Positions 25,905-50,216 of a DNA stretch of 50,216 bases are shown piece by piece. Within the stretch, counting starts at the first letter, position 1, and every line of letters starts with the position of its first letter. Under the pieces are notes generated by a model that did not search any database, was not told the origin of the DNA, and saw only the letters and a list, made by a program, of their open reading frames with translations. This DNA comes from a bacterium (GTDB lineage Archaea; Aenigmatarchaeota; Aenigmatarchaeia; CG10238-14; SCSR01), in NCBI GenBank assembly GCA_027310405.1, contig DAIDAX010000002.1:1-50216 (forward strand), written 5' to 3'. Both the position numbers and the translations under genes were made by a program.

Positions 25905-26989
25905 TCCAATCCACTTTCCAAATAGTCTACAATTCTTTCTGCAGCTTTTCCATCTCCAAATGGATTTTTAACTTTTCTAAAATCTTTCTTAAGAAATGAA
26001 ACGACGTCATCTACATCTTTGTCTATCATCAAAGTTGCTACCCCAGCCCTTATTGCTTCGGGTCTTTCAGTTTTCTGTCTAAACACCAGGCAGGGCTTTT
26101 TAAGTATACAACATTCCTCTTGCACTCCTCCACTATCAGTAATTATTCCAGTGGACGAATTTAACAACTTCAAAAAACTTGCATACCCTCTCAATTTCAT
26201 AATTTTAATATTTGATTTTCGTAATGTATTCCATAAGTTCATTTCTTTAAGCTTGTATTCTGTATTTCCATGGACAATCAGAATAACTTTGTATGGAAGT
26301 TTTGTAATTATATCGACAAATTTTTTCATCCTTTCATAAGAATTTATATTTTCCTGCCTGTGAATTTGAGCTATAACATATTTTGTTCTAGAACGGGTTT
26401 TAATTTTTTGGGGAATAAAATAATTGACAGCATCTACAATTGTATTACCCGTATAATAAATTTTTCCAAGCCTGAACTCGTTTTTTAGATTTTTAATAGC
26501 GTCTTTTGTGGGTGCAAATAAAAAATCTGAAAATTTATCTGATATTCTTCTTGATATTTCTTCTGGAAAAGGTTCAAAAAGATCGTAACTTCTTAGCCCA
26601 GCTTCTACATGTCCTATCTTGGGTCGTTTGAATACAATACTTCTATCAGCAATGACTGCAACTGCAGTAGCTAAGGTATCTCCCTGACATACTACAAAAT
26701 CCGGTTTGATTTTTTGAAATACTTTTCTTAGTTTCAAACAAATTTTTAGACTCCATACAGATGCATCTAAAATAGATTTGAATAAATTTCCTTTAAATTT
26801 TCCAGTCTTGTATTCAGATATGTCTAATTTAACGTCGGGCTGTTTAATTTTCAGTTCCTTAATCAAATCATCTATCTTATGTTGACCAGTATGAATAAAC
26901 GTCCATGGAATTTCCCTTTTATCTAACTCTTTCATTATAGGAAATATTTTGATAAGTTCTGCTCTCGTCCCAAGTACTACAGCTATCAT
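25901..26989 (-). CDS. UDP-N-acetylglucosamine 2-epimerase (WecB-like)
   Basis: IAVVLGTRAELIK, VVCQGDTLAT, HVEAGLRS, ITDSGGVQEE. Start set at the internal ATG (MIAVVLG...) to avoid overlapping the divergent gene at 27022. Confidence 0.85.
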   Translation of the reverse strand: MIAVVLGTRAELIKIFPIMKELDKREIPWTFIHTGQHKIDDLIKELKIKQPDVKLDISEYKTGKFKGNLFKSILDASVWSLKICLKLRKVFQKIKPDFVVCQGDTLATAVAVIADRSIVFKRPKIGHVEAGLRSYDLFEPFPEEISRRISDKFSDFLFAPTKDAIKNLKNEFRLGKIYYTGNTIVDAVNYFIPQKIKTRSRTKYVIAQIHRQENINSYERMKKFVDIITKLPYKVILIVHGNTEYKLKEMNLWNTLRKSNIKIMKLRGYASFLKLLNSSTGIITDSGGVQEECCILKKPCLVFRQKTERPEAIRAGVATLMIDKDVDDVVSFLKKDFRKVKNPFGDGKAAERIVDYLESGLE

Positions 26990-27021
26990 ACTACAAATAA
27001 AATATTTAATAGTAAATTTAA

Positions 27022-28119
27022 ATGATGCAAACAATTAGAGTAAGGTTAAAATCGTTTACGCCAATTCCAGACTCATCTAACTATAGATATATGATTTCCT
27101 ATCCACCATCAGATATTGAGTTTGTTGGTTTTAGAAACAAGAGTGTAATTTCAAAACCGAATATTTTTAAAAAGTGGTCTATACTAAAGAAATCTGCAAG
27201 ATCGATAATTGAAGTTACCAAATTACCTAATTTAATCTTCTCTATTAAAAAAGATGCAGATATTTTCCACTGCTCACATTCTTTGCTATTAAATAACTTT
27301 CCATGGGTTACTGATTTTGAACACTACTGGACTTTTTCTGTAAGCGCCAAAATTTCTTATTCTACGACTGGCAAGAAAATTATAAACAATTTCTTAAAAA
27401 AGAAAAATTGTAAAAAAATTTTGCCTTGGACAATTTCAGCTAAAGAAAGTTTAGAACAAGTAATTAAAAACAAAGAAATCTTGGACAAATGTGAAGTTGT
27501 ATATCCAGCAGTACCATTTTTCCAAAAAAAGAAAAGTAATAATAAAATACCTTCACTGTTGTTTGTCGGAAGATATTTTTATGAAAAGGGTGGACTGTTT
27601 TTTGTTAAAGTAGTAGAAGACTTACAAAAGAAATATGATGTAGATGCAAAACTAGTTTCTTTTACAGTTCCAGAAAGTATAATTGAAAAATACGGATCAA
27701 AAATTAAGATTTTCAAACAAGTACCAAATGAAGTTCTTTTTAATAAAATTTATCCAGAAGCAGATGTTTTTATTTATCCAGGATTCACCGATACTTTCGG
27801 GTTTTCACTTTTAGAAGCAATGAGTTTTGGCATCCCAATAATTACAACCAACGCCTTTGCTAGAGAAGAAATCGTCACAAATAACAATAATGGATTTATT
27901 GTAAATAGACCGGACAAAATTAATTTTTTTAAAATCGACAGAAAAGAGAATAATTTAGTAAATAACTTAGTGAGAAAAACGGCTCTTCTTATTGAGAATC
28001 TTTCTACAAGGAAAAAAATGAGTAAAGAAAATAGAAAATTAATTAAGAATGGTAAATTTTCAATTAAAAATCGAAATAAAAAACTTAGGATAATTTATGA
28101 AGAAGCCACCAAACAATAA
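27022..28119 (+). CDS. GT4 glycosyltransferase
   Basis: LLFVGRYFYEKGG, DTFGFSLLEAMSFGIPIITTN. Confidence 0.75.
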   Translation: MMQTIRVRLKSFTPIPDSSNYRYMISYPPSDIEFVGFRNKSVISKPNIFKKWSILKKSARSIIEVTKLPNLIFSIKKDADIFHCSHSLLLNNFPWVTDFEHYWTFSVSAKISYSTTGKKIINNFLKKKNCKKILPWTISAKESLEQVIKNKEILDKCEVVYPAVPFFQKKKSNNKIPSLLFVGRYFYEKGGLFFVKVVEDLQKKYDVDAKLVSFTVPESIIEKYGSKIKIFKQVPNEVLFNKIYPEADVFIYPGFTDTFGFSLLEAMSFGIPIITTNAFAREEIVTNNNNGFIVNRPDKINFFKIDRKENNLVNNLVRKTALLIENLSTRKKMSKENRKLIKNGKFSIKNRNKKLRIIYEEATKQ

Positions 28120-28169
28120 TACTTAACAAATATACTTAAAATTTAAGTTAATTGTAAAATTGTGATTAG

Positions 28170-29684
28170 ATGAAAATTGGAGAAAAACTAGTAAGCAATT
28201 CAGTTTATCTTTTCTTCGACTGGTTTGTTGTTACAGTCTTTTCTCTAATTTTTTGGCTTGTAGTAGGAAAAACTCTGTCAACATACGATTATGGTGTTAT
28301 TGCAACATCGGTAAATACAGTTTCTCTACTTTCGGCTTTCGCACTTGTTGGTCTCGCTTCAGCAGCTCCAAAATTAATTTCGGAATATTTGAGCGTAAAA
28401 AATAGAAAAAGAGCAGATGCAGTTACCACGCTTTCCTTAAAAATAACTTTATTGACATCGCTAATAATAGGAATTGTTTTGTTTTTTGCTTCTGGATACA
28501 TATCCTCCGTTTACAAGACACCAACGATCAGTTTACAAATTGCTTCATTGACAATGATTCCGGCTTCTCTCTACATACTCTCTTCTTCAATTCTACAAGG
28601 TTATCAAGACATGAGAAAAATTTTTTCAACTGATGGACTCGGGTATGCTGTAAAAGCTGGACTTGCTCTCGTTCTAATTGTTGTTGGGTTTGGTTTTATG
28701 GGGCCACTCATCGGTTGGCTACTAAGTTATCTTGTAATTATCTTGTTGCGACTTAGATATTTCAAATCACTGTCATCGAAAGGTATAGACAAACATTTTG
28801 TGATTTTTTCTTATGCAATTCCAGCATTTATTGGTAGTATAATTTTTACTCTCCTCTCGAACACACCAAATCTGATTGTTAGTTCTTTAGAGGGGCCAGC
28901 ACTCGCAGGTTTGTTTGCACTGTCGTTGACTATCACTTACCCAATAGCAGTTGTACCAGGCATATTGAATACAGCTTTATTTCCAATAGTATCAGGACTA
29001 ATGAATGAGAAAAACGCGGCTAAAAGACAAAGGAGACTCATCGGTTTAGTGACACATTACACCTCTTTTGTCGTAATACCTGCTTTAATATTATTCATTT
29101 TATTTTCACGTGAACTAGTTTTGTTTTTTGCAACTCAGAATTATCTTGGCGCAACTCAGTTAATTCCGTACTTAGCTGTCGCATCGTTTTTCTTTGGATT
29201 CGGAAGCATACTTAGTCAAGCTATATACGCCATAAGAAAACCAAAGATGTCACAATACATTGCATTGTTGACGACTGCAATTTTCTTTATCCTTGTACTC
29301 CCACTTACTCTGATGTCTTCTATAAGAGGCACTGCAATCGCATATTTAATTTCTGGAATAGTGTTTTCATTTGTAAGTTACATTTTTCTAAATAAGGTTT
29401 TAAAATTCAGATTACCATTAAAACCACTATCTAAAATTCTCTTATCTGGTGTTTTGGTTTTGCTGATTGGTCTTTACGCACTTAACTTTTCTCTAATTAT
29501 AAAAATTCTATTAGCCATTGCTTCATTGCTGATTTATGTATCTGCTTTAATCCCCCTTCGCTTTTATTCAGTTGACGATATAAGAATTCTGCAAATCCTT
29601 GCAAAGAAATCTCCAGTATTTAAAAATTTGTTTAGATTCACTGGAAACTTCCTTTCAAAGTATGCCAGAGAATCCGATTATTGA
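28170..29684 (+). CDS. MOP-superfamily oligosaccharide flippase (Wzx-like)
   Basis: 504 aa and roughly 12-14 predicted TM helices. Typical polysaccharide-biosynthesis-protein layout within a glycosylation locus. Confidence 0.7.
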   Translation: MKIGEKLVSNSVYLFFDWFVVTVFSLIFWLVVGKTLSTYDYGVIATSVNTVSLLSAFALVGLASAAPKLISEYLSVKNRKRADAVTTLSLKITLLTSLIIGIVLFFASGYISSVYKTPTISLQIASLTMIPASLYILSSSILQGYQDMRKIFSTDGLGYAVKAGLALVLIVVGFGFMGPLIGWLLSYLVIILLRLRYFKSLSSKGIDKHFVIFSYAIPAFIGSIIFTLLSNTPNLIVSSLEGPALAGLFALSLTITYPIAVVPGILNTALFPIVSGLMNEKNAAKRQRRLIGLVTHYTSFVVIPALILFILFSRELVLFFATQNYLGATQLIPYLAVASFFFGFGSILSQAIYAIRKPKMSQYIALLTTAIFFILVLPLTLMSSIRGTAIAYLISGIVFSFVSYIFLNKVLKFRLPLKPLSKILLSGVLVLLIGLYALNFSLIIKILLAIASLLIYVSALIPLRFYSVDDIRILQILAKKSPVFKNLFRFTGNFLSKYARESDY

Positions 29685-30677
29685 AAAAATAATTTGCAAT
29701 CCGATTAGGATTAATGTCATCTGCTTCTCTGTGAAATTTCCAACCGACATTATCCACTGAGTTAACCCATAAACTCTTTCGTTGTATCTCGGTCTCAACG
29801 TCCCATCTCTCTGCAACAATCCCAAGTTCGAGGGGAAGAATCCAAACCTGTAACGATTGTAGAATTTCAAAATAACATTGATGATGAAGAGAAGCATTGT
29901 GATTATCGCAACTTTTTCCATGTTGCCGATTATCGCTCCAGTTGCAACGATTGCCCCGAGAAGATAAGTTAGCGAATCTCCTGGAAGAATTTTTGCTGGA
30001 TAGAAATTAAATTTCATTGCAGCAATCAACGCAGCAAAAGTTACAAAAAATAAAACCGATGCGTCGACGCTGCCGTGTAGCCAAGCAAACAATCCAAGAG
30101 AAAAAGTGTAAACAATTCCCATTCCAATTTCAGACCCATTAAATCCGCCGAGCATGTTTACCATGTTACTTGCAGCGACAACACCAATCGGAACAAGCAA
30201 CAACGTATAGAGAATTCCAAACTGCACTTCACCAATTAGTGGTATGCTCATCGAGGTTATTCCGGCCATTATTACCATTAAAGGAAATGCAGCGGGAAGT
30301 GTAAGCAAAGGTTTCACCCATCTTTTCAGTCCGCGCTTTCCTTCGTGATGATTTCTGATCTCCACTTGCCTTGTGTTGATGTCATCGACAAAACCGATTA
30401 TCGTTATTATCAAAATTGTTGTGACAGATGCGAACAAAGTCAACAAACTAGAAGTCGAACTGTATAGAAAAACTTGGACGAAAATGTAAAACAGAATTCC
30501 GAACAATAGACCAGCTGCTACTGGCAGGCCAATTGAGTGTGGAAGAAATATTTTTTTCTTCTTGTGAACATCTATATCGACTAACTCCGCTTCTCTGAAG
30601 TAATCAATCGCATATTTTGTAATGAAAAACGTTGCAAGGAAAGAAAGAACCATCGAAATAAGTAGAGCCGTTACCAT
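29655..30677 (-). CDS. UDP-HexNAc:polyprenol-phosphate HexNAc-1-phosphate transferase (AglH/WecA/GPT family)
   Basis: GFVDDINT, NMVNMLGGFNGSEIG, PGDSLTYLLG. Polytopic. Confidence 0.8.
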   Translation of the reverse strand: MVTALLISMVLSFLATFFITKYAIDYFREAELVDIDVHKKKKIFLPHSIGLPVAAGLLFGILFYIFVQVFLYSSTSSLLTLFASVTTILIITIIGFVDDINTRQVEIRNHHEGKRGLKRWVKPLLTLPAAFPLMVIMAGITSMSIPLIGEVQFGILYTLLLVPIGVVAASNMVNMLGGFNGSEIGMGIVYTFSLGLFAWLHGSVDASVLFFVTFAALIAAMKFNFYPAKILPGDSLTYLLGAIVATGAIIGNMEKVAIITMLLFIINVILKFYNRYRFGFFPSNLGLLQRDGTLRPRYNERVYGLTQWIMSVGNFTEKQMTLILIGLQIIFSIIGFSGIL

Positions 30678-30678
30678 C

Positions 30679-32325
30679 TCACAACACCTTGTAGATTATC
30701 GAACCATCGCATCCACCTTGCGATAAACAAGTGTTCAAATCTGGACCATTCTCGTAAACTTTCTGGAATGTGTTATTATTCTGTTCCAAGAATTGAATGA
30801 AGCTTATTGGATAACTTTGCTCATATGCTTGAGGACTGATTGCAAATTTTTGCACGAAAATGTAATTAATTCCATCTATACTAAGTCTATCTTTGACTAG
30901 TGTAACGTTGTTGCTCAAAATTATATCTGGTAAATCTTGCAACTCCCACACAGCATTTCTGTCGCAATTATAGACAGTAGGATGTCCATTCTCAGAAAGG
31001 AGTGTCGAGTTTGTCGGTGTATTCTGTTTTACCCAGTCACATGCTTGTAAGAACAACGGAGAAAACTGTTTTACACCAGACATTATTGCATTTTTGCTGT
31101 AGAAATTGCTGAATGACGCTACAATTACTACAAGAATCAGTAACACAGGTAAATATTTGCTGTATCGTTTTATTGCTCTTGATAGTTCTTCCAAATAAAT
31201 CGAAGCTACAACTGAAATTGCTGGTACAGCGATAAGTGTGTATCTTGCTGCGTCTTCGGCTCTTCCCGAATAAGTCAGGTAGAAAATTGGTAGTGTCGCG
31301 AGTAGATACAACAGTGAAATCAAACCAAACTTTTCGCGCCTTGCCAAAATTAACACTGCACCAATCGTAAACAACAAAGGAACTAACCAAATCTGACCGT
31401 ATGCAAATTGAAAGAACGAAATTAATCCAAGACTGTAAACATTTTGCTCTGTCCCAACTAGCGCAGTTCGTCCTGCAAAATTATTTTGTGGTGTATAGTT
31501 ACTAGTTACTATACAATTTTGATTTCTAAATAGGAATTCAAGTTGCCCTGCACAAATGGGTGCATTAAAATAGTAAAGATTTCTTAGAAAAAATCCACCG
31601 AGAAAAACTAACAAGACTACAACAATGAATATATATTTTTTAATAACTCTGAAATCTTTTATTTTGAAAAACTCGTATAGAAAATACAGAAAATAGAACG
31701 GCAGAATTAAATAAGCAGGAGCTTTGGTCAAGATAGAAAGAGCGGCAAATGCTGTTGACAAGACGAGATATTTTTTATCTTTAGTTTTTTCGTATAAAAT
31801 AAAAGTTCCTACAAAAAGAGTAATCCAAAATATCAGAAGCGTATCCACATAGAATAAATCTGCATAAGTAACAATTGACGGAACTGTCACTAGAATTATC
31901 GAGGACAAAAATCCAGTAAGTTTGTTAAATATCTTTCCAAACATTGCATAAGCAGCCAATCCAGTTAAAACGGAAATAAGTGGGGTAAGAATTTCAACTA
32001 TCAACGGACTGAATCCAAACAGATAGTAAAAACTTCCTTCTAAAAATATCCACATTGGTGGTTTAAAGAATCCCTGATGTTCAACACTATCTCCTTCAAA
32101 TGGCATCCATGTATAGTACTGAACATTTCTTGCCACCAATCTCGAAAGCTGTGTATAGTAAGCTTCATCTCCAAATGCAATCGGACTCGGAATTGTTACA
32201 GAAATCTCGAGATAAAAAATTATTGCGAGAAACATCAACAAAATCCAAAACTCAGGTCTTTTTATTTCTAAAGTTTTTTCAGCTTGCTTGTTCTCCTGTT
32301 GAACCTGTTGTATTTCATCTGCCAA
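30679..32325 (-). CDS. GT-C glycosyltransferase (PMT_2/ArnT-like; AglS-like candidate)
   Basis: First external loop has AFGDEAYY (acidic DE motif), followed by ~11 TM helices and a C-terminal soluble domain. 548 aa. Confidence 0.7.
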   Translation of the reverse strand: MADEIQQVQQENKQAEKTLEIKRPEFWILLMFLAIIFYLEISVTIPSPIAFGDEAYYTQLSRLVARNVQYYTWMPFEGDSVEHQGFFKPPMWIFLEGSFYYLFGFSPLIVEILTPLISVLTGLAAYAMFGKIFNKLTGFLSSIILVTVPSIVTYADLFYVDTLLIFWITLFVGTFILYEKTKDKKYLVLSTAFAALSILTKAPAYLILPFYFLYFLYEFFKIKDFRVIKKYIFIVVVLLVFLGGFFLRNLYYFNAPICAGQLEFLFRNQNCIVTSNYTPQNNFAGRTALVGTEQNVYSLGLISFFQFAYGQIWLVPLLFTIGAVLILARREKFGLISLLYLLATLPIFYLTYSGRAEDAARYTLIAVPAISVVASIYLEELSRAIKRYSKYLPVLLILVVIVASFSNFYSKNAIMSGVKQFSPLFLQACDWVKQNTPTNSTLLSENGHPTVYNCDRNAVWELQDLPDIILSNNVTLVKDRLSIDGINYIFVQKFAISPQAYEQSYPISFIQFLEQNNNTFQKVYENGPDLNTCLSQGGCDGSIIYKVL

Positions 32326-32413
32326 TTATTCACCGAACAATTTATACAATTTGAAAGTGCACTATTAAATCTCTTAATCAATGATAAGTTTAAGATAACT
32401 TTAGGTGAAGTTG

Positions 32414-33559
32414 ATGAAAATAGCAGTAATTAGCGATTTGTTTTACCCCCACGTTGGTGGCGGAGAATATTATCTGATGAACATAGAAAAACAACTTGTC
32501 GAACAAGGTCATGATGTAATTCATCTGACAAGTAGACTTGCTGGATCTAAAGCAAATGAAACCGTCGATGGAATAAATGTCATAAGATCTTGGATACCTT
32601 TTTCAAACAATGTGATGAAAGGTCGGTTCTTCTTTCCTTTCACAAATTTGACTAAAATAAAAGAACTGAGAGACGCCGACATAATACAAAGTGTAACTTA
32701 TCCAGCCGCTGTGACTGGATGGCTTTTTGGAAAACTTTTGAAAAAACCAAATATACTTTTTTGTCACGAATTTTTTAGAGACTACTGGAAATTTATGCGA
32801 AGCAACATTTTAGCGAAAAAAATTTATCCAGTTGTAGAAAATTTCATAGCAGACTCACCATACGATTGGGCAATTACTCCATCAGAATATTCCAAGAGAT
32901 CTTTAATTGATGCCGGTTTCGATAAAAGAAAAATATCTGTCGCTTATCATGGCATAGATGAAAAATTTAGACCGAACATAGAAGTTGGTAGTCTGCGAAA
33001 AAAGTATAATTTGGTTGGGAAGAAAACTTTTGGATTCATTGGGAGAATGGATGATTTTGGGCAAAAAGGAATCAAATATTTGATTGAAGCTGCTAAGCTC
33101 GTCGTGAATGAGGTGCCGAATGCAAGATTGCTTTTGGCAGGTACTGGTTACAACAATGTAAAACCATTAATCAAAAAACTTGGTATTGAAAAGTTTGTTA
33201 TAAACTTTGGAAAAATTCCAGATAACATGGTTCCTAAATTCTATTCATTGTTAGATGTTTTTTCTGGTGCATCTATAGCAGAAGGGTTTGGACTAGTTTA
33301 TGCAGAAGCTTCAAGATGTGGGAGACCAGTTGTCGCAACAAATACATCATCCATTCCAGAAATTGTAATTAACAAGAAAACTGGTTTACTTGTTCCTAGC
33401 AGGAATTCAGAATCTTTAGCTAATGCAATAATAAAATTGTTAAACAACAAGAAATTAGCTAAAAAATTTGGAAAGAATGGTCCGAAGTATACGAAAAAGT
33501 TTACTTGGGAGAATTCTTTGAAGAAACACATTGAAGTATACGAAAAGTTTGTGGAGTAA
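32414..33559 (+). CDS. GT4 glycosyltransferase
   Basis: MKIAVISDLFYPHVGGGE, EGFGLVYAEASRCGRPVVATN. ATG 32414 is preceded by GGTGA; the track starts at GTG 32405. Confidence 0.85.
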   Translation: MKIAVISDLFYPHVGGGEYYLMNIEKQLVEQGHDVIHLTSRLAGSKANETVDGINVIRSWIPFSNNVMKGRFFFPFTNLTKIKELRDADIIQSVTYPAAVTGWLFGKLLKKPNILFCHEFFRDYWKFMRSNILAKKIYPVVENFIADSPYDWAITPSEYSKRSLIDAGFDKRKISVAYHGIDEKFRPNIEVGSLRKKYNLVGKKTFGFIGRMDDFGQKGIKYLIEAAKLVVNEVPNARLLLAGTGYNNVKPLIKKLGIEKFVINFGKIPDNMVPKFYSLLDVFSGASIAEGFGLVYAEASRCGRPVVATNTSSIPEIVINKKTGLLVPSRNSESLANAIIKLLNNKKLAKKFGKNGPKYTKKFTWENSLKKHIEVYEKFVE

Positions 33560-33563
33560 GTCT

Positions 33564-34076
33564 ATGAAAAAGATACTAAATGTAGGATGTGGAAACGACA
33601 CTTATGGTACGGATTTTGTAGATTTGTATCCAAGTAGAAAAGAAGTGCTTAAATGTGATATTGATAACGAGAAACTTCCATATCCAAACAACTCATTTGA
33701 TGAAGTCTTTTCACGATGTCTTTTCGAACACCTAACCAAACCCGGATTTGTGCTGAAAGAAATGTATCGTGTCTTGAAAAAAGGAGGAAAATTAATTTTG
33801 ATTACAGACAACGCAAACTATTATGGCTTTGCAATCGGTAAGACTCACCTTGGAGATTATGAAGGAGTCGGTTCTCATGGGAAAGAAGACAAACATTATT
33901 CTCTATTTACAGACTGGCATCTGAGAAATCATACACAGAAAGTAGGATTCAAAAACATTAAAACATCCTATATAGATAGCTCAAGGTCAAGTTTGAAATT
34001 TTTCAATTTTATTTTGAGAATAACACCGTTGAAAAGAATGAGTTATTCGAGGGTAAAACTAGAAGCCACGAAATAA
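33564..34076 (+). CDS. class I SAM-dependent methyltransferase (type 11)
   Basis: ILNVGCGNDTYG (motif I), FDEVFSRCLFEHL, VLKKGGKLIL. ATG lies 5 nt after the upstream stop; the track starts at TTG 33531. Confidence 0.75.
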   Translation: MKKILNVGCGNDTYGTDFVDLYPSRKEVLKCDIDNEKLPYPNNSFDEVFSRCLFEHLTKPGFVLKEMYRVLKKGGKLILITDNANYYGFAIGKTHLGDYEGVGSHGKEDKHYSLFTDWHLRNHTQKVGFKNIKTSYIDSSRSSLKFFNFILRITPLKRMSYSRVKLEATK

Positions 34077-34134
34077 CATTTACAAATAACAAAAGGTTTA
34101 TCCACGCGGTTCAAACTATAATGAGGTTTAATTT

Positions 34135-36288
34135 ATGCAGAGATTACTGAAATTTGTTTTGGACAATGTTCAGTGGTTTATACTCGCAGGAATAATGGCT
34201 CTCGCGATAGTTCTTAGACTGTCAACTGCAGGATTTACGAACATACTTGATTATGATCCATGGTGGTTTTTCAGATGGGCTCAAACGATTCTTGCAAATA
34301 ACTTTGTTGCGCCCCGCTGGGATTTGCTAAGTTATTTCCCGCCAGGAAGGCCAGTTGACTTTTATCTCGGCTGGTCGTACACAATAGCATTCTTCTACGC
34401 AATCTTCAGCAAATTTGTAAACGTCTCGCTCGCAATATTTTCCGGATACTTTGTTGTAGTGTTTGCAGCGCTGGGTGCGATTCCAGCATACTTTGTTGGT
34501 AAGCACGTCACGAACAGATGGGGAGGACTTGTCACTGCATTCTTCGGAACGATTGCTCCGATAAGCATAACACGTTCGTTAGCAGGATACCCAGCAGCAG
34601 ATATGGCTGATGTATTCTACAACTTTCTTGTTGTACTTACAACTCTCTACACCATAAGTGTGTGGAAAGATTTTTCATTTTCATCTTTTAGAAGCAGTTG
34701 GAAAAGTAAAAAATCTTTGAAGTATGTTTGGTCTGTGTTGATTGCAGTTTTGACTTACTGGCTTTTCTCACTCAACTTCAACAGCAGCTGGTACATCTAC
34801 TACATTTTCGTCTTGTTCATCCCATTCATTCTGTTTTTCAAAGTGATCGAAAATGTAATCGCAAAAAAATCATTGAACCTATTAACAATTGTAAAAGAAA
34901 ATCAAGGACTCATCCTTTCGATAATCGCGATTGGAGTTGTTGGAGAGATTGTTACTTATCTTACTTCTGGTTGGCCGTTCAACACAATTGATCCTATCGC
35001 CGGGATAATCGGCGGACTGAATTTTCTAAACAACTATCTGATTGTAAACGTTTCAATCGCAGAACTTCAACCACTGAATGTCTTTTCGTGGGGTGGATTC
35101 CTTGGCGTTTTGCAGAACGTTGGAACAGTTCCAGTCTTGCTCGGTCTATTTGGTCTGCCTCTGATGCTGTTGTACAAACTTGCGACGAAAAAAGAAATCC
35201 ACACCGCAGAATATTTCACGATAGTTTGGATGATAATCGGATTTTGGATGATTACTAGAGGTTTGAGATTGGCACTCCTGTTTTCTCTTGCGACTGCTGC
35301 TGGTTCTGGATTCGTTATTGGAAATCTGATCGAATATCTTAAGGCAAGAAAAAATATTTTGTTGTTCGCAACAATTATTGGAATAATTTTGTTCGCATTT
35401 GTTTGGGACATTTCAGACAACACACAAGTTTCTCTCGGATCTGTAAGCGGTCTGCAAGTTGATCAAAACTGGATTGATGCATTGAACTGGTTGAAAGCGA
35501 ACTCAGATAACAACACACTCGTCGCCACGTGGTGGGATCCGGGACACATCATCACAGGGTATACTGGGCTGAAAGTTTTTGCTGATGGTGCACATTGCGC
35601 TCCAGGATCGTGTATACCGTATAACATAAACGATAGGATAGTTGACATGGGAACAATTTTCACAACGTCGAACGAAACGCAAGCCGTCAGTATTTTACAA
35701 AAGTATACACAGCTCACTCCATTGCAACAACAAGCAGTTCTCCAAGCTTTTGGCAATGCTGTTCCACAATCCGTATTCACTCCTGTCGACCAAGTTTACT
35801 TGATTGCCAGCTCAGACTTGATCGCAAAGTATTACTGGATGAGTTGTTTTTCGATGTACGCTGCACAATGCACTCCAAGTTCTCCGAATGTTGCAGGATT
35901 CATACAATTCTATCTCGCTGGAAGAGATAATTCTGGAGGGCTCGTTTATCAGGGACCAGGAGATGCAACAATCACTCTTGCGCAAACTAACACGAGCCAA
36001 GTTGTTGCAGTTTTGAATTCTCCATCTTCGAACATACGAAGCACACTGATTAATGATGTAGTTCTTTATCAGAATGGGCAAGAATTAGATTTCAATTATG
36101 GAAACGTTTCTAGCGCGATTCAAGCGATGGCTTGGATCTCGCCAGACTTTTCGTACATATTCTTCATGCAATCTTCTGTGGAGAACTCTATGTTCACAAG
36201 AATGTTCTTCTTCAATGGAGCAGGGTTGCAACATTTTCAACTCGTTTTCAGTAACGCAGAAATAAAAATTTTCAAAGTTAAATTTTAA
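34135..36288 (+). CDS. aglB: oligosaccharyltransferase AglB (STT3 homolog)
   Basis: 13-TM-type N-terminal domain with DYDPWWFFR in loop 1, the catalytic WWDPGH (WWDxG) motif, and a large C-terminal external domain. Confidence 0.9.
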   Translation: MQRLLKFVLDNVQWFILAGIMALAIVLRLSTAGFTNILDYDPWWFFRWAQTILANNFVAPRWDLLSYFPPGRPVDFYLGWSYTIAFFYAIFSKFVNVSLAIFSGYFVVVFAALGAIPAYFVGKHVTNRWGGLVTAFFGTIAPISITRSLAGYPAADMADVFYNFLVVLTTLYTISVWKDFSFSSFRSSWKSKKSLKYVWSVLIAVLTYWLFSLNFNSSWYIYYIFVLFIPFILFFKVIENVIAKKSLNLLTIVKENQGLILSIIAIGVVGEIVTYLTSGWPFNTIDPIAGIIGGLNFLNNYLIVNVSIAELQPLNVFSWGGFLGVLQNVGTVPVLLGLFGLPLMLLYKLATKKEIHTAEYFTIVWMIIGFWMITRGLRLALLFSLATAAGSGFVIGNLIEYLKARKNILLFATIIGIILFAFVWDISDNTQVSLGSVSGLQVDQNWIDALNWLKANSDNNTLVATWWDPGHIITGYTGLKVFADGAHCAPGSCIPYNINDRIVDMGTIFTTSNETQAVSILQKYTQLTPLQQQAVLQAFGNAVPQSVFTPVDQVYLIASSDLIAKYYWMSCFSMYAAQCTPSSPNVAGFIQFYLAGRDNSGGLVYQGPGDATITLAQTNTSQVVAVLNSPSSNIRSTLINDVVLYQNGQELDFNYGNVSSAIQAMAWISPDFSYIFFMQSSVENSMFTRMFFFNGAGLQHFQLVFSNAEIKIFKVKF

Positions 36289-36308
36289 GCTGGACTTAAA
36301 TTAATCAG

Positions 36309-44731: not shown

Positions 44732-45226
44732 ATGATGAGTATGAGCATGAATTCGGATTACACTCCGAGCAGCAGGGCAATGTTACCGCAAGATGGACTT
44801 ATTCATGGGTATAATCTTTCCAAAGAACGTGGTCATGCCGCCGCAAGCATTGTTGCTGAGCATGCCAGAGAGAGTGTTTTTTACCAATCAGTACTTTTGC
44901 CTATAATGAACACGTTCTACAAAATGTCAGCTGACTGGTTCAAAGAACTTACTGGATACAAAGAAAAGTTGAAAAACACCAAAGACCCAGAAGCAAGATC
45001 TTACTACGAAAAGGCATTCGGAATGGGTCGCTATATGTTTAGAGGTCTTGCAATACGCGCTAGAGAAATTTTCGAAAAAATTTACAAACCTATGCAACAG
45101 GAACAATTAGATGCGGCTAAAGCAGAGTACGATAAAATAACACAGCCAATAATTGAAGAACTAGATAAATCAAAGGCAACGGCAGACAATGCGGACAAGC
45201 TGAAAGCACAGCTCTATTCCATTTAA
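44732..45226 (+). CDS. hypothetical helical soluble protein (164 aa)
   Basis: Intact ORF, convergent with the membrane-protein operon. No motif recognised. Confidence 0.5.
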   Translation: MMSMSMNSDYTPSSRAMLPQDGLIHGYNLSKERGHAAASIVAEHARESVFYQSVLLPIMNTFYKMSADWFKELTGYKEKLKNTKDPEARSYYEKAFGMGRYMFRGLAIRAREIFEKIYKPMQQEQLDAAKAEYDKITQPIIEELDKSKATADNADKLKAQLYSI

Positions 45227-45254: not shown

Positions 45255-45848
45255 TTATTCTGATTTTCCTTTAGAAGGATTTTGTTTTTCTCCACTACTT
45301 GAAGCATAAATTACAACTAAAGCGGTGAGAACGAATACAACAATCAATGCGAGATCTGATGAGCTCAATCCTGGGAATTGGAATATTGGGGCACTTCCTG
45401 TTCCAAGAGAAATTCCCGGAAATATCGAAAGTCCACCGCTTGAAGCAAAAACTCCAACTGCAAGAATTATTGCCGCCAAAACAATCCACTTTACATCCTT
45501 TGAAATGTCCTTTAGCTTGTCTTCACCTGCAGTCGGAACGACAATCATTACAGTGATGAGCATGAAAACGAGTATCGTCAAAACTACAACCAAAGTACTT
45601 CCCGCTAAGTTAGTAAGAAACTGAGAAAGCGTGAGTGCAGCTGGTCCAACTGGTGTATAGACAAGGAGGAATGCAGAGAACGAAAGTGCGATGATGATGT
45701 TTATTCTTTTTCCAGCCGCATCCTCTCCGAAAATTTTTGCTCTGTCAAGCAATCCGTAGAATATTGCAAACATCAGAATGAAAGGCAGGTAGAATTGAAA
45801 AATCCCAAGATCTTTCGCCTGAGCTATCAGGTCTGCAAATGTAACCAT
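45255..45848 (-). CDS. paralogous polytopic membrane protein, member 1 (5 TM)
   Basis: MVTFADLIAQAKDLGIFQFYLPFILMFAIFYGLLDRAKIFGE core shared with five neighbours. Gly/Pro-rich loop before the last TM. Confidence 0.8.
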   Translation of the reverse strand: MVTFADLIAQAKDLGIFQFYLPFILMFAIFYGLLDRAKIFGEDAAGKRINIIIALSFSAFLLVYTPVGPAALTLSQFLTNLAGSTLVVVLTILVFMLITVMIVVPTAGEDKLKDISKDVKWIVLAAIILAVGVFASSGGLSIFPGISLGTGSAPIFQFPGLSSSDLALIVVFVLTALVVIYASSSGEKQNPSKGKSE

Positions 45849-45885
45849 GTTTCCAAAAACAAATTCGTTTTGTAAACTTTAATAC

Positions 45886-46437
45886 CTATTTTCCGCCGGG
45901 AACTACAACTATCGCTGCTACAGAAACTATGAGAATGATTAGAATAATAATTGTCGTTATTGTATCTTGGCTCAATCCACCAAAGCTGGGACCGGAAACT
46001 CCTCCAGGAATAATGAAATTTACCAGTCCGCTCGAAATTAAAATTCCAGCAGCGATTAAAATTCCAGCGATAACAAATCCAACTCCACCTTTACCGATTT
46101 GTTTTGACAGTGACTCGGCAAAATTTTCCGGCAAAAACATTCCACCAATTAAAATTCCGACTATCACAACCAGCGTCGCCATCGTCGCTTGAAAGAAGAA
46201 TGTCGAGAGTGTAAGTTGCACATTAACCCCGGCGATTACCGGATACGCCCAGACCATGAACGCGGCAACAATCGCAACGACAGCATTTATTGCAACGTTA
46301 GCATTCGGTTCTCCGAAAACTTTCGATCTCCTAAGAAGTCCGTAGAAAATTGCAGCAGTCAGCATGAATGGAAACAAAAATTGGAATGCTCCAAGGCTGT
46401 TCAGATTGTTTATCACTGTTTCGAATGGAGATACCAT
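45886..46437 (-). CDS. paralogous polytopic membrane protein, member 2 (5 TM)
   Basis: MVSPFETVINNLNSLGAFQFLFPFMLTAAIFYGLLRRSKVFGE. Same architecture as members 1 and 3. Confidence 0.8.
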   Translation of the reverse strand: MVSPFETVINNLNSLGAFQFLFPFMLTAAIFYGLLRRSKVFGEPNANVAINAVVAIVAAFMVWAYPVIAGVNVQLTLSTFFFQATMATLVVIVGILIGGMFLPENFAESLSKQIGKGGVGFVIAGILIAAGILISSGLVNFIIPGGVSGPSFGGLSQDTITTIIILIILIVSVAAIVVVPGGK

Positions 46438-46447
46438 GTTTCATCAA

Positions 46448-46987
46448 CTAAATTCTCGCGATTCCTGTCGCGACTATCAACAACACAATAAATATTATGA
46501 GTCCAGCAGCGATTAATATTACGTCTGTCGGCGTTGTTGGTGCAGATCCTGGTGCAGCAGGTTTGCCAAGATTTCCAACGAACACGGTTATGAGTCCGCT
46601 CGTCACGAACAATGCAATTGCGAGCACGACCATGAGGAAGAGAATCGATCTGCTTTTGATACGCTCTGTCAAAAATGTTCCAAGGTTAGGATAGAACAAA
46701 CTTGCGAGCATGAAGCCTACGAAGACTATTATGATGAAGACCGTTGCCTGTGTGAAAAACGTTGCAAGCGGGGTTGCGAGACTGACTCCAACAATAACTG
46801 GATAGCCAAAAATCATGAAAGCGACTGAGAGCGCAAGAACAGCGTTGATAACGACTGATTCTCCAAGAACTTTCGACTTTCTCAGCAACGCGTACAGAAT
46901 CGCGGCAGTGATGATGAACGGAAAAATGAAATTGTAGAACCCGAGATTAATCATTGTCTGTACTACTGCGTCAAAAGGTGTAGTCAT
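46448..46987 (-). CDS. paralogous polytopic membrane protein, member 3 (5 TM)
   Basis: MTTPFDAVVQTMINLGFYNFIFPFIITAAILYALLRKSKVLGE. Starts 10 nt upstream of member 2. Confidence 0.8.
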   Translation of the reverse strand: MTTPFDAVVQTMINLGFYNFIFPFIITAAILYALLRKSKVLGESVVINAVLALSVAFMIFGYPVIVGVSLATPLATFFTQATVFIIIVFVGFMLASLFYPNLGTFLTERIKSRSILFLMVVLAIALFVTSGLITVFVGNLGKPAAPGSAPTTPTDVILIAAGLIIFIVLLIVATGIARI

Positions 46988-47033
46988 TCTATCTCTTAAT
47001 TAATTTCGTTTGTAAGCAATTTATTCTTTAGAA

Positions 47034-47522
47034 TTACGTGCGTCCTCTGTGCAATAATCTGTCTCGACGTCTTTTCAATTCTTCAATCGTGTCGTCTATC
47101 TCGTCTTTTTCGTGTTCGTCGTCCGTCTCGTCGTATTTTTCTTCCAGCTTCGCGATTTTTTTGTTTATTTCTTTGACTTCGTCGTCGACATTTCCAAATT
47201 CTCTTTCCCATCCTTTTCCACGACCAACCGCATACTGAACTGCGCCGAAAATAAAGAGTGCGAAAAATATTGCGATTGCAAATCCTCCAGTGAACTGCGA
47301 CATCGTTGTTGTGAAAGTTACGAATGCTTGCGTGTTCGCGAAGAAAATTGTTATGATTAATGCCAGAATCGCACTGATTTTGTTGTTGAAAAGTTTCAGC
47401 AAACGAATTACTGAGTAGAGAATTAGGAAACTGAAAACGAATGGCAGGAAAAAATTGTAAATCAAATCAGGAAACCCCGATTGAGATAAAGTTGTGAGAA
47501 GAATAGAATTTTCAAAGACCAT
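47034..47522 (-). CDS. paralogous membrane protein, member 4 (3-TM core plus acidic coiled-coil tail)
   Basis: GFPDLIYNFFLPFVFSFLILYSVIRLLKLF core. C-terminal tail DDEVKEINKKIAKLEEKYDETDDEHEKDEIDDTIEELKRRRDRL. Confidence 0.75.
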   Translation of the reverse strand: MVFENSILLTTLSQSGFPDLIYNFFLPFVFSFLILYSVIRLLKLFNNKISAILALIITIFFANTQAFVTFTTTMSQFTGGFAIAIFFALFIFGAVQYAVGRGKGWEREFGNVDDEVKEINKKIAKLEEKYDETDDEHEKDEIDDTIEELKRRRDRLLHRGRT

Positions 47523-47565
47523 TGTTTAAAATTTTGTTTTCAAAATTAATAAGTTAGAAAAATTT

Positions 47566-48741
47566 CTAGTAGATTTTGTTCAGAATAGTCGACCAAGAAG
47601 AATTATAAGTTTGCATAAGGTCGGCAGCCAATTTTTCTAGATTGGAATTTCCTTTTGCCGCTGCAAACAGATCGTCGAATCTCGCTCCGTCAACCCATCT
47701 CGATGCAGAGATGTAACCTTCGTAAGTTTTAGCTCCACCTTTCTTCCCTTTCTTAGCATAAGCATTAACAACTTCTCCCTGTTTCCAAGCTATCGAGCCT
47801 CTGATAGATTCGTAAGAAGCATAAAAGCCTGGCACACACGTTGTCTGCGCTCCAGTAGTTGTTGTTGTCGGTTGCGTGTAAGTCATAGTTTGCGGCATGA
47901 TGTATCCTGGAACAGCACTCAAAGATTTTCGAATGTCTGCACGTCTTCCCCAACGCGTATTTTTGTAGAGTTCCGAAGCAACATACTTTGAACCGCGATA
48001 AGTAGCTGACAAAACTCTTTTCGTTGGCTTTTCAAGTCTTTTCGACTGTGTATAAACTTTTCTCGCAACTCTCTTTGTCGGCGCAGCAACTTTCTTAGAT
48101 CTTTGATAAGTAGTTTTTACCGCGCTCTTTGTTCGTCTCGCAATCCTTCTTGGAGATTCTTTGAAATTAATGTAAATGTTTCCGAGATTCTCCTGAACAT
48201 TTATCTGAGTAAGTCTGTCTACTCCTCTTACAAGCCCTCTATAACTTTTTGCAATTATTGGAAATCTTCCGTATTCTGCTTCTTTCAATCTCTTTCGAGC
48301 AACAGTCGGATTCGGAAGACCAGCTTCTTGCACCAAAGTGTCGGCGAATTTTTGCAGTGAATAATCGTGTTTCATGTAATCCATGTTCCAGTCAATAAAC
48401 GAAACTTTCGGCTCAATGTCCCAGTTAGAAACTCTGAAAATCGGATTTTGAGATCTTGGACTTTCGTATATCTTTAGCGAAGAGTTAGTTTCAGCAACGT
48501 AATATTTTGTCTTAAGTGGTTCTAGACTCTTTTGCAATCTTGCATTTTTCAAGTCTATAGTTTTGGAAATTTTTACATTGAGAGATTTGTTATCTGGTTC
48601 ATAATAAAATCTGTCCACGGCAAAGAGGCGTTTCATATCCTTCTCAAAACGTCCGATAACAGTTGCTTGCGTCCTTTTGTCTGAAGTCTTGTATTTCTTG
48701 CTTTCTACAAGCCTGTCAAAACGTTTTTCAATCCAAGACAT
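47566..48741 (-). CDS. hypothetical soluble basic protein with internal ~18-aa repeats (391 aa)
   Basis: Long intact ORF inside the membrane-protein operon. Repeats KTTYQRSKKVAAPTKRVAR / KVYTQSKRLEKPTKRVLS / ATYRGSKYV, and a poly-Thr segment PTTTTTG. Confidence 0.75.
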   Translation of the reverse strand: MSWIEKRFDRLVESKKYKTSDKRTQATVIGRFEKDMKRLFAVDRFYYEPDNKSLNVKISKTIDLKNARLQKSLEPLKTKYYVAETNSSLKIYESPRSQNPIFRVSNWDIEPKVSFIDWNMDYMKHDYSLQKFADTLVQEAGLPNPTVARKRLKEAEYGRFPIIAKSYRGLVRGVDRLTQINVQENLGNIYINFKESPRRIARRTKSAVKTTYQRSKKVAAPTKRVARKVYTQSKRLEKPTKRVLSATYRGSKYVASELYKNTRWGRRADIRKSLSAVPGYIMPQTMTYTQPTTTTTGAQTTCVPGFYASYESIRGSIAWKQGEVVNAYAKKGKKGGAKTYEGYISASRWVDGARFDDLFAAAKGNSNLEKLAADLMQTYNSSWSTILNKIY

Positions 48742-48805
48742 GTTTATCTTTCACTACTTGAGAGTACTTAAATATTTATATTCTCGAGAATACAGGTTTC
48801 CAAAT
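48742..48805 (-). promoter_or_regulatory. possible internal promoter with imperfect palindrome around a TATA-like box
   Basis: cttgagagta / tattctcgag (8 of 10 complementary) flank aaatatttat. The element is ~35-45 nt upstream of the ATG at 48741. Confidence 0.3.
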
Positions 48806-49492
48806 TTAGCTTGGGCGCAATCTTTCAAGTTCCCTAAGCCTAGATTCGATGTCAGCGATTTCTGTTCTATACGCCTGTGCGCGTCTTTCGAGCTCTTCTC
48901 GTCTATCTGGATTGGTTTCTCTAGCTATGTCCCTCATTGTACCAGTCAAATTTTCTTCTAAAGTACTCAAACGGTTATTCAATTCACCCTGCTGAGATCT
49001 GTACGCAGAAAAAACACCAGCTTCTGTCATTGATACATTGGTTCTTTTCCAAAAGTACAGTCCACCACCAACAAAAAAGAGTAAAATAAATATCCCATAA
49101 GCAAATGCACCCATGTATGCAAGGCTACCAGCGACAAATTGATAAAATGCACTGTTGTCGAAAAATCCGGTCAAACTACTTGGACCCAAAGTAGAAAATG
49201 CGATGAGAAAAGAAATTATTCCCGCAAAATTTCTCGGTCGATCGAAAATCCTAAGTTGTTTGACAAGTCCGTAGACTATTACAAAGAGCGCTGCAAAAGG
49301 AATAATAAACTGGTAGATGAAAGCTGGAAAAACTAACCAGTCTGCAGGGATTCCAAGTATCGATGAAATTACATCTCCGCCAGGTATTGCCGTTTGTGCA
49401 AGTACTGTCGGGAGAATTGCTAAAAACGAGATCGCAAAAGCTGTAAACAGTTTTTTCATTTCCCTCGAATAACTAATTGTGTTTGTAAACAT
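48806..49492 (-). CDS. paralogous membrane protein, member 5 (signal-peptide-like N-terminus, 3-TM core, coiled-coil tail)
   Basis: MKKLFTAFAISFLAILPTVLAQT, then FPAFIYQFIIPFAALFVIVYGLVKQLRIF core. C-terminal tail LSTLEENLTGTMRDIARETNPDRREELERRAQAYRTEIADIESRLRELERL. Confidence 0.75.
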   Translation of the reverse strand: MFTNTISYSREMKKLFTAFAISFLAILPTVLAQTAIPGGDVISSILGIPADWLVFPAFIYQFIIPFAALFVIVYGLVKQLRIFDRPRNFAGIISFLIAFSTLGPSSLTGFFDNSAFYQFVAGSLAYMGAFAYGIFILLFFVGGGLYFWKRTNVSMTEAGVFSAYRSQQGELNNRLSTLEENLTGTMRDIARETNPDRREELERRAQAYRTEIADIESRLRELERLRPS

Positions 49493-49503
49493 TTAATATT
49501 CTT

Positions 49504-50136
49504 TTATCCGTACTGCACTGGAATCGAAGGAAGACTTAGCTGGGTTGCGATGAAAAAATAAACGACAATGATTATCAAAATTGACACGTATCTTTTCCAT
49601 CCACTCAACTGGTACCACGCCCAGAAAGCGAAGAACGCGAACAGTGCCGGGAAAAACTGCGTGACAGAAGTTATCTGCCAATCTTTCAGCGCCCACCACA
49701 GCAATCCTATCGGAGCGATTCCGAAAAGTTTCATGCCGAATCCCCACGGTTTCATCAGCACGTAAAGAATTCCGAAAAGTGCTAGAACTGTCGGAAGATT
49801 CGAGAGTGTGAGATTCGACGAATATTGGAACATCACGAAAACTACGGCGAGACCAAGAGCTTTTGACGTTATTCCCCTGACGCGCAGTCCGAGTATGCCC
49901 GCGAGTCCGAGCCACATCGTTATCGAACCGCCGAAACGTAGCGTCGGAAATGCAAGAACCAAACCAAGAATTGTTTGAACTATTGAGTTTCTTTGATAAA
50001 TTCTTCCGATGAGAAGATAGAACGCGTACCAAATTACAGCGAGTGGAATGACGAAACTCATAAAAAAACTAATCGGGTCGTACGCCGGAGAAGGAACTCC
50101 AAGAAACTGTGTGAAGATGTCTGTGTAAGTAACCAC
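49504..50136 (-). CDS. paralogous polytopic membrane protein, member 6 (divergent, ~6 TM)
   Basis: MVTYTDIFTQFLG N-terminus resembles that of member 1. ISFFMSFVIPLAVIWYAFYLLIGRIYQR is the core-like TM1. GTG start. Confidence 0.7.
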   Translation of the reverse strand: MVTYTDIFTQFLGVPSPAYDPISFFMSFVIPLAVIWYAFYLLIGRIYQRNSIVQTILGLVLAFPTLRFGGSITMWLGLAGILGLRVRGITSKALGLAVVFVMFQYSSNLTLSNLPTVLALFGILYVLMKPWGFGMKLFGIAPIGLLWWALKDWQITSVTQFFPALFAFFAFWAWYQLSGWKRYVSILIIIVVYFFIATQLSLPSIPVQYG

Positions 50137-50158: not shown

Positions 50159-50216
50159 TTATTCTTCTTTCTTCATTTTCTGGATGAGGTCGCTGAGTGT
50201 GTGCACACTTTCGATA
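50159..50216 (-). CDS. 3' end of an upstream gene (partial, continues beyond the window)
   Basis: The minus-strand frame reads ...IESVHTLSDLIQKMKKEE* and is open to the window edge. Confidence 0.3.
   Translation of the reverse strand, partial: IESVHTLSDLIQKMKKEE

Follow-up and report, generated by a model that had tools for sequence, protein, structure and literature searches.

Tandem paralogous membrane proteins beside type IV pilus genes in Aenigmarchaeota: a lineage-specific family with a possible accessory role

Near the end of the window, by which we mean the whole stretch of 50,216 nucleotides (nt) analysed here (contig DAIDAX010000002.1 of the Aenigmatarchaeota assembly GCA_027310405.1), lie seven consecutive minus-strand open reading frames (ORFs) at 45255-50136, which are designated A to G in the order of their transcription and most of which encode related polytopic membrane proteins. 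The locus forms the distal end of an operon conserved in the order p131, p222, (A/B/D), E, F, (G), which in related genomes is transcribed divergently from an adjoining set of type IV pilus-like genes. Read together with these neighbours, the family may form a heteromeric membrane and coiled-coil scaffold accessory to a type IV pilus machine, a reading that we put forward tentatively, with somewhat less than even confidence. An original prediction, made from the DNA letters and the translated ORFs, had proposed an operon of six paralogs separated by about 10-65 nt; all seven ORFs are present where it had placed them, and the gaps from A to G measure 11, 64, 43, 46, 10 and 37 nt, which confirms both the coordinates and the spacing (10-64 nt).

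To judge from sequence comparison, B, D, E, F and G are clear paralogs. Pairwise BLASTP connects E with F (4e-34), F with G (7e-21), E with G (3e-12), B with D (3e-14), B with G (4e-6) and D with G (6e-5), and jackhmmer searches seeded with any one of the five converge on the same group, some 290 ORFs from 77 loci. In a family hidden Markov model (HMM) trained solely on homologs from outside the window, F scores 175.7 bits, E 165.5, G 140.9, D 65.9 and B 58.8, while shuffled sequences, used as controls, stay below 3 bits. With scores of 59-176 bits against such controls, the paralogy lies far above what hydrophobic composition gives, and the generic hydrophobic likeness that had been considered as an alternative explanation does not account for it. 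The hhalign alignment of a B/D-type profile with an F-type profile (probability 95.4%, E 1.6e-8) spans the first transmembrane (TM) helix, the turn and the second helix, so that the secure common core is a hairpin of about 50 residues, TM1-TM2; TM3, which comes next in every subtype, is a probable further part of the core. The core had originally been described as three TM helices over about 90 residues; the hairpin within it stands and the third helix probably does, while a uniformly alignable stretch of 90 residues does not.

In the family alignments the invariant or near-invariant positions are G16, F20, P23, F24, A29, Y32, G33, L34, L35, R36 and S38, followed by F41, G42, P44, N47, N51, F60, P66 and F80, and three of them, F20, P23 and Y32, are invariant in every subtype. 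The hallmark at the N-terminus reads F-x-x-PF...YGLLRK.x.FGEP, with a basic cytoplasmic turn '(I/V)FGEP', after which TM2 opens with N-x-x-x-N; the motifs reported earlier for TM1, TM2 and TM3 are right for E, F and G.

An AlphaFold2 (AF2) model of F, built with 120 homologs, is all-helical and has a mean predicted local distance difference test score (pLDDT) of 76.9, with 10-residue block means above 90 across residues 1-60. It consists of an amphipathic helix (4-14), TM1 (17-38), TM2 (48-69), TM3 (73-101), a short helix (106-113), TM4 (118-135), a low-confidence Gly/Pro-rich loop and TM5 (157-178). By hydropathy and AF2, E, F and G have five TM helices and B and D have three, and most E-type members elsewhere likewise have five by hydropathy. 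A Sec signal peptide precedes the core in 14 of 18 long B-type proteins, at a distance of 20-40 residues, and the average number of K and R residues rises from about 1.0 in the 16 amino acids (aa) before TM1 to 2.4-3.3 in the 13 aa after it. The N-terminus of the family is hence predicted to be extracellular, with which the AF2 helix map agrees, and the coiled-coil tails of B and D would then be cytoplasmic, as would the basic C-terminal ends of E, F and G, and the Gly/Pro-rich loop external. The modular tails noticed at the outset are thereby borne out, with five TM helices in E, F and G, three TM helices plus a charged coiled coil in B and D, and a signal peptide in B. Foldseek searches with the AF2 model of F returned no match in the PDB (best E 3.3) or among the viral folds of BFVD (best E 0.85).

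The sixth member, A, is divergent. Against the whole-family HMM it scores -1.9 bits, with 11 of 500 shuffles scoring higher, and hhalign against the whole family gives a non-significant probability of 3%. Orthologs at 70% and 65% identity show that A is a real gene, and in a close relative (L078) its ortholog again sits directly after p222. In several other loci the first gene after p222 is likewise a short family member (116-183 aa), and these first-position proteins have a common N-terminal pattern, ...G-(I/V)-P-x-(E/D)-W-L-x-F-P...(I/F)-I-P-(L/F). With an HMM made from eight such short proteins, A scores 9.6 bits (best of 2000 shuffles, 5.6) and its two orthologs 17.3 and 16.6 bits. Because the subtype score exceeds that of all shuffles and because A takes the first position after p222, it is accepted as a divergent sixth member that is less well supported than the other five. 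The six-fold paralogy claimed at first therefore holds for five proteins directly and for A only by way of the first-position subtype.

The family matches nothing characterised. Searches of the seven ORFs against Pfam, PHROG and NCBIfam gave nothing significant apart from an EAD9 coiled-coil match on the tail of B, and the family sequence profile has no match in the PDB; the initial impression of a core outside any known family is upheld by these searches and by the one against viral folds. For F, 213 homologs were retrieved from a set of 5.8 billion proteins, none of which carries a functional name given by its source, and a HMMER scan of 1.84 billion representatives found 1,401 clusters at E<=1e-3, of which 315 reach E<=1e-10. 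A scan of species-representative genomes yielded 72 loci, nearly all in Aenigmatarchaeota or unclassified archaeal metagenome-assembled genomes (MAGs), and the family thus seems almost confined to Aenigmarchaeota, which are tiny DPANN archaea; the guess that the DNA comes from a DPANN-type archaeon agrees with its relatives being Aenigmatarchaeota MAGs. No description of the paralog family was found by literature searches or in papers on archaeal membrane dark matter and type IV pilus (T4P) diversity. Three records carry other labels. In L038 (AWOA01000066.1, labelled Calescibacterium nevadense) the synteny of the Aenigmarchaeota locus is complete, with diphthine synthase in its place, and the short contigs L049 (JAEOTG010000134.1, Heimdallarchaeota) and L062 (QNBZ01000207.1, Planctomycetota) hold fragments of that locus; all three are probably mis-binned or contaminant records in public MAGs.

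Array composition was counted in the 44 complete clusters, those delimited at each end. E and F occur together in all 44, G in 27, D in 16 (in each of which a D-type gene stands ahead of E) and B in 14, and the copy number ranges from 2 to 9, the commonest arrays being EF (16), EFG (12) and BBDEFG (6). The array of the window (A, B, [C], D, E, F, G) lies at the rich end of this range. The constant presence of E and F, the common TM1-TM2 core and the modular tails point to a heteromeric membrane complex, which is the natural reading of the locus and had been suggested from the start.

When all ORFs of the fetched loci were clustered, a fixed order emerged in the relatives: platform and ATPase on the minus strand, then p131, p222 and the paralogs on the plus strand, followed by the diphthine synthase gene dph5 (minus) and trm5 (plus). 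Of the 35 loci whose sequence extends 5.5 kb or more upstream of the first paralog, 33 have the ATPase gene there, and p222 immediately precedes the paralogs in 37 loci at a median gap of 36 nt. The remaining median gaps are 40 nt from p131 to p222 and 7 nt from paralog to paralog, and the divergent spacer between ATPase and p131 measures about 37 nt. The operon of the window is cut by the window edge within p222: the final 58 nt translate to IESVHTLSDLIQKMKKEE*, the C-terminus of p222, which fits the invariant C-terminal motif LPALIESVR.L.DL of that protein and matches the end of p222 in L078 (...LPALIESVRTLSDLVQKMKKEE*). The window agrees exactly with the order found in the relatives. The L078 contig reads platform and ATPase, then divergently p131, p222 and the A ortholog, and by synteny the operon of pilus ATPase, platform and pilins should begin about 1.2 kb past the end of the window. 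A search for ATPases upstream of position 50216 had been suggested as a check; run on the relatives, it found a FlaI/TadA-type ATPase, a platform protein and class III pilins, all transcribed divergently from the paralogs.

The ATPase (about 742 aa) matches afGspE (PDB 2oap, 1e-27), FlaI (4e-17) and CpaF (4e-16) and reaches 1e-36 with the NCBIfam FlaI model, which is under the equivalog cutoff; on these matches it is assigned to the archaeal FlaI/afGspE/TadA-CpaF group. Its partner, a polytopic protein of about 653 aa whose gene shares about 4 nt with that of the ATPase, resembles the cytoplasmic domain of EpsF/GspF (1e-3) and PilC (0.57) through the characteristic T2SSF helix motif, and its identity as a TadC/GspF-like platform is a borderline one, as is the profile match. 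Downstream of the platform gene and on the same strand follow several ORFs, small as well as large, with textbook archaeal class III leaders (MKG... or MKKG..., then a hydrophobic helix). Selected by a simple rule of leader plus hydrophobicity, 62 such candidates occur in the 64 kb downstream of the platform against 34 in 1,020 strand-kb elsewhere, an enrichment of about 29-fold, and they are found in 28 of 29 loci. Leader-bearing ORFs next to the platform, together with the ATPase and the platform itself, make up a full type IV pilus-like set back-to-back with the paralog operon. Five loci (L008, L029, L033, L060 and L076) encode, downstream of the platform, large Cys-rich proteins of 221-626 aa that have class III leaders and no Pfam domain; these may serve the Aenigmarchaeota pilus as adhesins or minor pilins.

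Of the two proteins encoded ahead of the paralogs, p131 is a coiled-coil protein of 131 aa, and p222 is a conserved cytoplasmic protein of about 222 aa in which a UBA-like N-terminal domain of three helices is joined by a Q/P-rich linker to a coiled coil at the C-terminus. The p222 profile finds only generic coiled coils in the PDB, mostly trimeric ones, and neither protein matches PspA, both giving generic coiled-coil matches only. The coiled coils of B and D and these two soluble proteins, all encoded in one operon, suggest a cytoplasmic scaffold, and the conserved divergent arrangement with the ATPase makes an accessory collar or scaffold of the pilus motor the most likely role. In such an arrangement the paralogs would join through their TM1-TM2 cores into a heteromeric membrane collar in which E and F are the obligatory pair. 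The short amphipathic N-terminal tail would lie outside, B and D would project a coiled coil into the cytoplasm, and E, F and G would add two further TM helices. The tails of B and D would then, with p131 and p222, hold the motor of ATPase and platform in position or anchor it, as a scaffold on the cytoplasmic side. The data show the paralogy, the topology signals, the structure of the operon, its constant neighbourhood to the pilus genes and what the ATPase and the pilins are; the assembly, its contact with the motor and a part in host attachment are steps that we infer.

Lineage-specific accessory proteins, both membrane and coiled-coil ones, are frequent in archaeal T4P loci, for instance the membrane proteins arCOG10497 and arCOG10500, the coiled-coil protein arCOG07564 and the 4-5-TM proteins arCOG05557 and arCOG13890 that accompany subclade 4D ATPases (Makarova, Koonin & Albers, 2016, PMC4858521). 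That census did not cover DPANN or Aenigmarchaeota, and in DPANN archaea similarity searches often fail to detect T4P components (Makarova et al., 2019, PMC6393860). The proteins described here are like those accessories in being small polytopic and cytoplasmic coiled-coil proteins that are encoded in or beside a locus of FlaI/TadA ATPase, TadC and pilins, evolve fast and belong to one lineage. They differ from them in forming a tandem array of 2-9 paralogs with one core, and the likeness is one of description, no relationship in sequence being known. No description of a tandem paralog array of this sort was found for any archaeal T4P locus. The locus is, in this respect, a new variant on the theme of lineage-specific T4P accessories, made of tandem paralogous polytopic proteins with a common core.

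In known machines the job of a motor scaffold is done by FlaX or ArlCDE in archaella, by PilMNO in type IVa pili and by GspLM in the type II secretion system (T2SS). FlaX/ArlCDE, PilM/N/O and GspL/M are likewise membrane-anchored and place cytoplasmic coiled coils around ATPase and platform, which is the role proposed here, and PilN/PilO and GspL/GspM resemble the family further in being paired or multiple paralogous subunits. Unlike the paralogs, which have 3-5 TM helices and an outward N-terminus, these scaffolds are bitopic with a single TM helix, and there is no sequence similarity between the two groups; in searches for Arch_fla_DE or FlaC_arch similarity the sole match was FlaC_arch on the tail of D (E 0.89). 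A bolder version of the accessory reading, in which a DPANN type IV filament machine contains a new structural module made of the paralogs, p131 and p222, a polytopic collar or stator with a coiled-coil cage and no counterpart in archaella, T4P, T2SS or Tad systems, appears rather improbable. In the L068-L074 lineage, which has no TadC-like gene beside the array, such a module might even stand in for the platform.

Several observations weigh against an accessory role in the pilus. The role is read from gene context alone. Adjacency by itself says little in this phylum: the unrelated housekeeping genes for diphthine synthase (61 loci) and TRM5 (47 loci) are conserved neighbours at least as often as the ATPase, and being equally conserved they raise the possibility that the ATPase link is frozen synteny. 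In two loci, L051 (7172-9297) and L066 (8407-9989), the cluster lies elsewhere and has no ATPase, p131, p222 or dph5 beside it. Furthermore, no case was seen in which the paralogs stand beside a pilus ATPase in an independent phylum, and the taxonomic spread was read from the fetched loci, not from the remote tail of the 1,401 clusters. It is the synteny with dph5 and trm5, the two exceptional loci and the association within a single phylum that keep our confidence in the accessory scaffold below even and leave a real, if smaller, chance that the paralogs form an independent membrane complex. Such a complex would be a self-contained envelope or membrane system formed by the p131-p222-paralog operon, in which the coiled-coil proteins are tethered to the small polytopic subunits; it might function in membrane organisation, stress response or remodelling, and would have come to lie beside the pilus genes through frozen gene order. 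In L051 and L066 the cluster is preceded by a gene for a membrane protein of 187-189 aa with a signal peptide and by a DUF72-like gene on the opposite strand.

Further points bear on an independent complex in both directions. In L051 and L066 the cluster lacks p131 and p222 as well as the ATPase, so that neither locus is an example of a complete independent system. Only a very short divergent spacer separates the operon from the ATPase gene, and the ATPase stays with the operon even where platform and pilins are not adjacent. This is the case in the lineage of L068, L070 and L072-L074, where the ATPase is still found with p131, p222, E and F, which favours a real link. In the same lineage an extra B-type member of 308-327 aa, with a signal peptide, two extra TM helices, the core and a coiled coil, is encoded convergently and abuts the 3' end of the ATPase gene (at about 5.1-8.3 kb in L074). 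A weak resemblance to DUF350 (PF03994, also UPF0719) speaks in turn for an independent complex: DUF350 proteins such as YjfL are small all-helical membrane proteins (4-TM in DUF350) as the paralogs are, and in E. coli YjfL is encoded beside a coiled-coil protein of the PspA family, YjfJ. This lead arose from names assigned by the Joint Genome Institute and one precomputed Pfam match. Among 120 F-type homologs, the DUF350 model matches 18 at E<0.01 in a roughly consistent register, of which one (27.3 bits) exceeds the gathering threshold of 26 bits. The proteins of the window give no DUF350 match at E<=1. E. coli YjfL is not clearly significant against the family, with an hhalign probability of 0.2% against family profile A2 and 13.7 and 9.3 bits against the family HMMs, where the best shuffles reach 9.7 and 9.6; p131 and p222, as mentioned, do not match PspA, and the F-x-x-PF...YGLLRK.x.FGEP hallmark is no feature of DUF350. 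Membership in DUF350 is thus unconfirmed.

A hetero-oligomeric channel, transporter or ion-conducting stator is improbable. It would accord with the small polytopic proteins, with conserved polar residues where TM2 begins (N47, N51) and where TM1 ends (Y32, R36, S38), and with the multi-paralog small subunits that some channels typically use; set against this, Pfam and NCBIfam searches show no transporter or MotA/ExbB/TolQ signature, Foldseek gives no match, and no transporter-type substrate-binding or ATPase partner is encoded alongside. Proton-conducting stators carry a conserved acidic residue inside a TM helix, whereas no D or E stands among the invariant or near-invariant columns listed above, columns that are not mapped singly to TM helices.

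An alternative in which the paralogs serve the neighbouring machine as atypical pilins or pseudopilins, or in place of its platform, is more doubtful still. G16 is invariant just ahead of TM1, the L068-L074 lineage has no TadC-like platform gene next to the array, and ATPase-only systems are known to be paired with unexplained 4-5-TM proteins (PMC4858521). However, the N-terminal tails are acidic or neutral (e.g. MVSPFETVINNLNSLG) and lack a K/R-G leader, the positive charge follows TM1, and the Sec peptides put the N-terminus outside, opposite to prepilins. The paralogs have 3-5 TM helices, not one TM helix with a globular external domain, and with genuine class III pilins of the canonical MKG type encoded on the ATPase side, next to the platform, the paralogs are not the pilins of that set. 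As a platform they lack any T2SSF match, which belongs to the 653-aa neighbour with its EpsF/GspF similarity.

A virus- or mobile element-derived membrane module (holins or virion membrane proteins), one of the ideas first raised for the locus, is effectively refuted: the three-TM, N-out, C-in topology with a charged C-terminal tail does recall class I holins, one family protein (P0239) carries a phage-tail-type Peptidase_S74 domain and there are weak PHROG matches to spanins and tape-measure proteins, yet all of the PHROG matches are non-significant coiled-coil or TM noise, neither Pfam nor PHROG gives a significant holin match, no relatives occur in 2.9 million viral contigs, no viral fold matches, and the family is found in phylum-wide synteny among housekeeping genes, where genes for integrases, capsids and lysis are absent.

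Like other DPANN archaea, Aenigmarchaeota are uncultivated organisms with reduced genomes and are presumed to be symbionts; little is known of how they attach to their hosts. The notion of a host-contact structure, also part of the original prediction, is plausible by way of the adjacent pilus: if the symbiont uses these pili to attach to its host, the module would belong to the host-contact apparatus. Through its type IV pilus neighbours, a phylum-wide multi-copy family of 'dark matter' is now tied to a testable hypothesis. Should the proteins prove to be part of the machine, they would represent a new accessory architecture for type IV filaments, a collar of polytopic paralogs with coiled-coil proteins; should they be independent, they would still count among the phylum's best conserved lineage-specific membrane systems. 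The family can in addition serve as a marker for locating such loci in MAGs.

Table 1. Genes at the distal end of the window.
Feature	Position	Strand	Description
p222, 3' end	50159..50216	-	cut by window edge; last 18 codons = IESVHTLSDLIQKMKKEE*
A, 210 aa, GTG start	49504..50136	-	divergent polytopic membrane protein, lineage-specific, putative 'first-position' subtype
B, 228 aa	48806..49492	-	Sec signal peptide, 3-TM core, predicted cytoplasmic coiled-coil tail
C, 391 aa	47566..48741	-	soluble basic ORFan, unrelated to the paralogs
D, 162 aa	47034..47522	-	3-TM core and charged, predicted cytoplasmic coiled-coil tail
E, 179 aa	46448..46987	-	5-TM member, universal subtype
F, 183 aa	45886..46437	-	5-TM member, universal, best conserved subtype
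G, 197 aa	45255..45848	-	5-TM member, Gly/Pro-rich external loop (predicted), last gene of the operon
164-aa ORFan	44732-45226	+	convergent with G; diphthine synthase comes next

The individual members (Table 1) call for a few further remarks. The public gene call for B (P0255, 217 aa) begins with MKKLF at M12 (49459), which is probably the correct start. Between its signal peptide and its core, B has a short external segment with the motif G-x-P-x-(E/D)-W-L. The EAD9 match on its tail (1e-6) recurs in 1 of 53 B/D-type homologs and is therefore taken as coiled-coil noise and not as a trait of the family. The homology search with D returned only 4 matches, because the tail evolves fast and the search tool applies a word prefilter. 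Protein C, which is encoded between B and D and contains loosely repeated K/R-rich segments (...RRTKSAVKTTYQRSKKVAAPTKRVARKVYTQSKRLEKPTKRV...), has no homologs in the 77 loci, also when re-checked with phmmer, or in the metagenome scan, and nothing significant in Pfam, PHROG or NCBIfam; its AF2 model is unusable (pLDDT 38), and C is a lineage-specific insertion in the operon.

The protein P0239 mentioned above (MBI2542841.1, from an Aenigmarchaeota MAG) is a G-type member with a signal peptide, a coiled coil and a C-terminal Peptidase_S74 chaperone domain (8e-17). In phage tail fibres and MYRF the Peptidase_S74 intramolecular chaperone trimerises and cleaves itself, and the fusion hints that tails of the family may form trimers. 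Four further fusion-like proteins (P0141, P0144, P0151 and P0152) were judged from their sequences to be chimeric or frameshifted gene calls, which leaves P0239 as the only genuine fusion.

On the far side of G, the 164-aa ORFan returns only itself in a jackhmmer search over the other loci; in L001 the slot between G and diphthine synthase holds a gene of similar size (161 aa). The rest of the window is ordinary archaeal chromosome, with genes for fibrillarin/Nop5, Kae1, PolB, SecDF, AglB, RadA, RPA and a RIO kinase, as well as rpS15, RecJ/Cdc45, rpS3Ae, an M50 protease, TRM5 and diphthine synthase. An alternative-frame ORF of 179 aa (49493-50032) overlaps A and is probably spurious.

The contrast in base composition reported earlier, with about 58% and 22% guanine plus cytosine (GC) in single 60-nt lines, is reproduced at 0.583 (49861-49920) and 0.217 (27001-27060). 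Gene A has the highest GC content in the window (0.458), and the richest 600-nt stretch of the window lies in it (49501-50100; 0.462 against a mean of 0.367, standard deviation 0.035); recent transfer or the amino-acid composition of A may account for it. The low-GC segment noticed at the outset (0.285 at 27-28 kb) falls inside a glycosylation island at about 22000-36300, which encodes two GT4 glycosyltransferases, a Wzx-like flippase and an AglH/WecA-like enzyme of GT family 4, together with a PMT_2 protein, a methyltransferase and an AglB/STT3 oligosaccharyltransferase.

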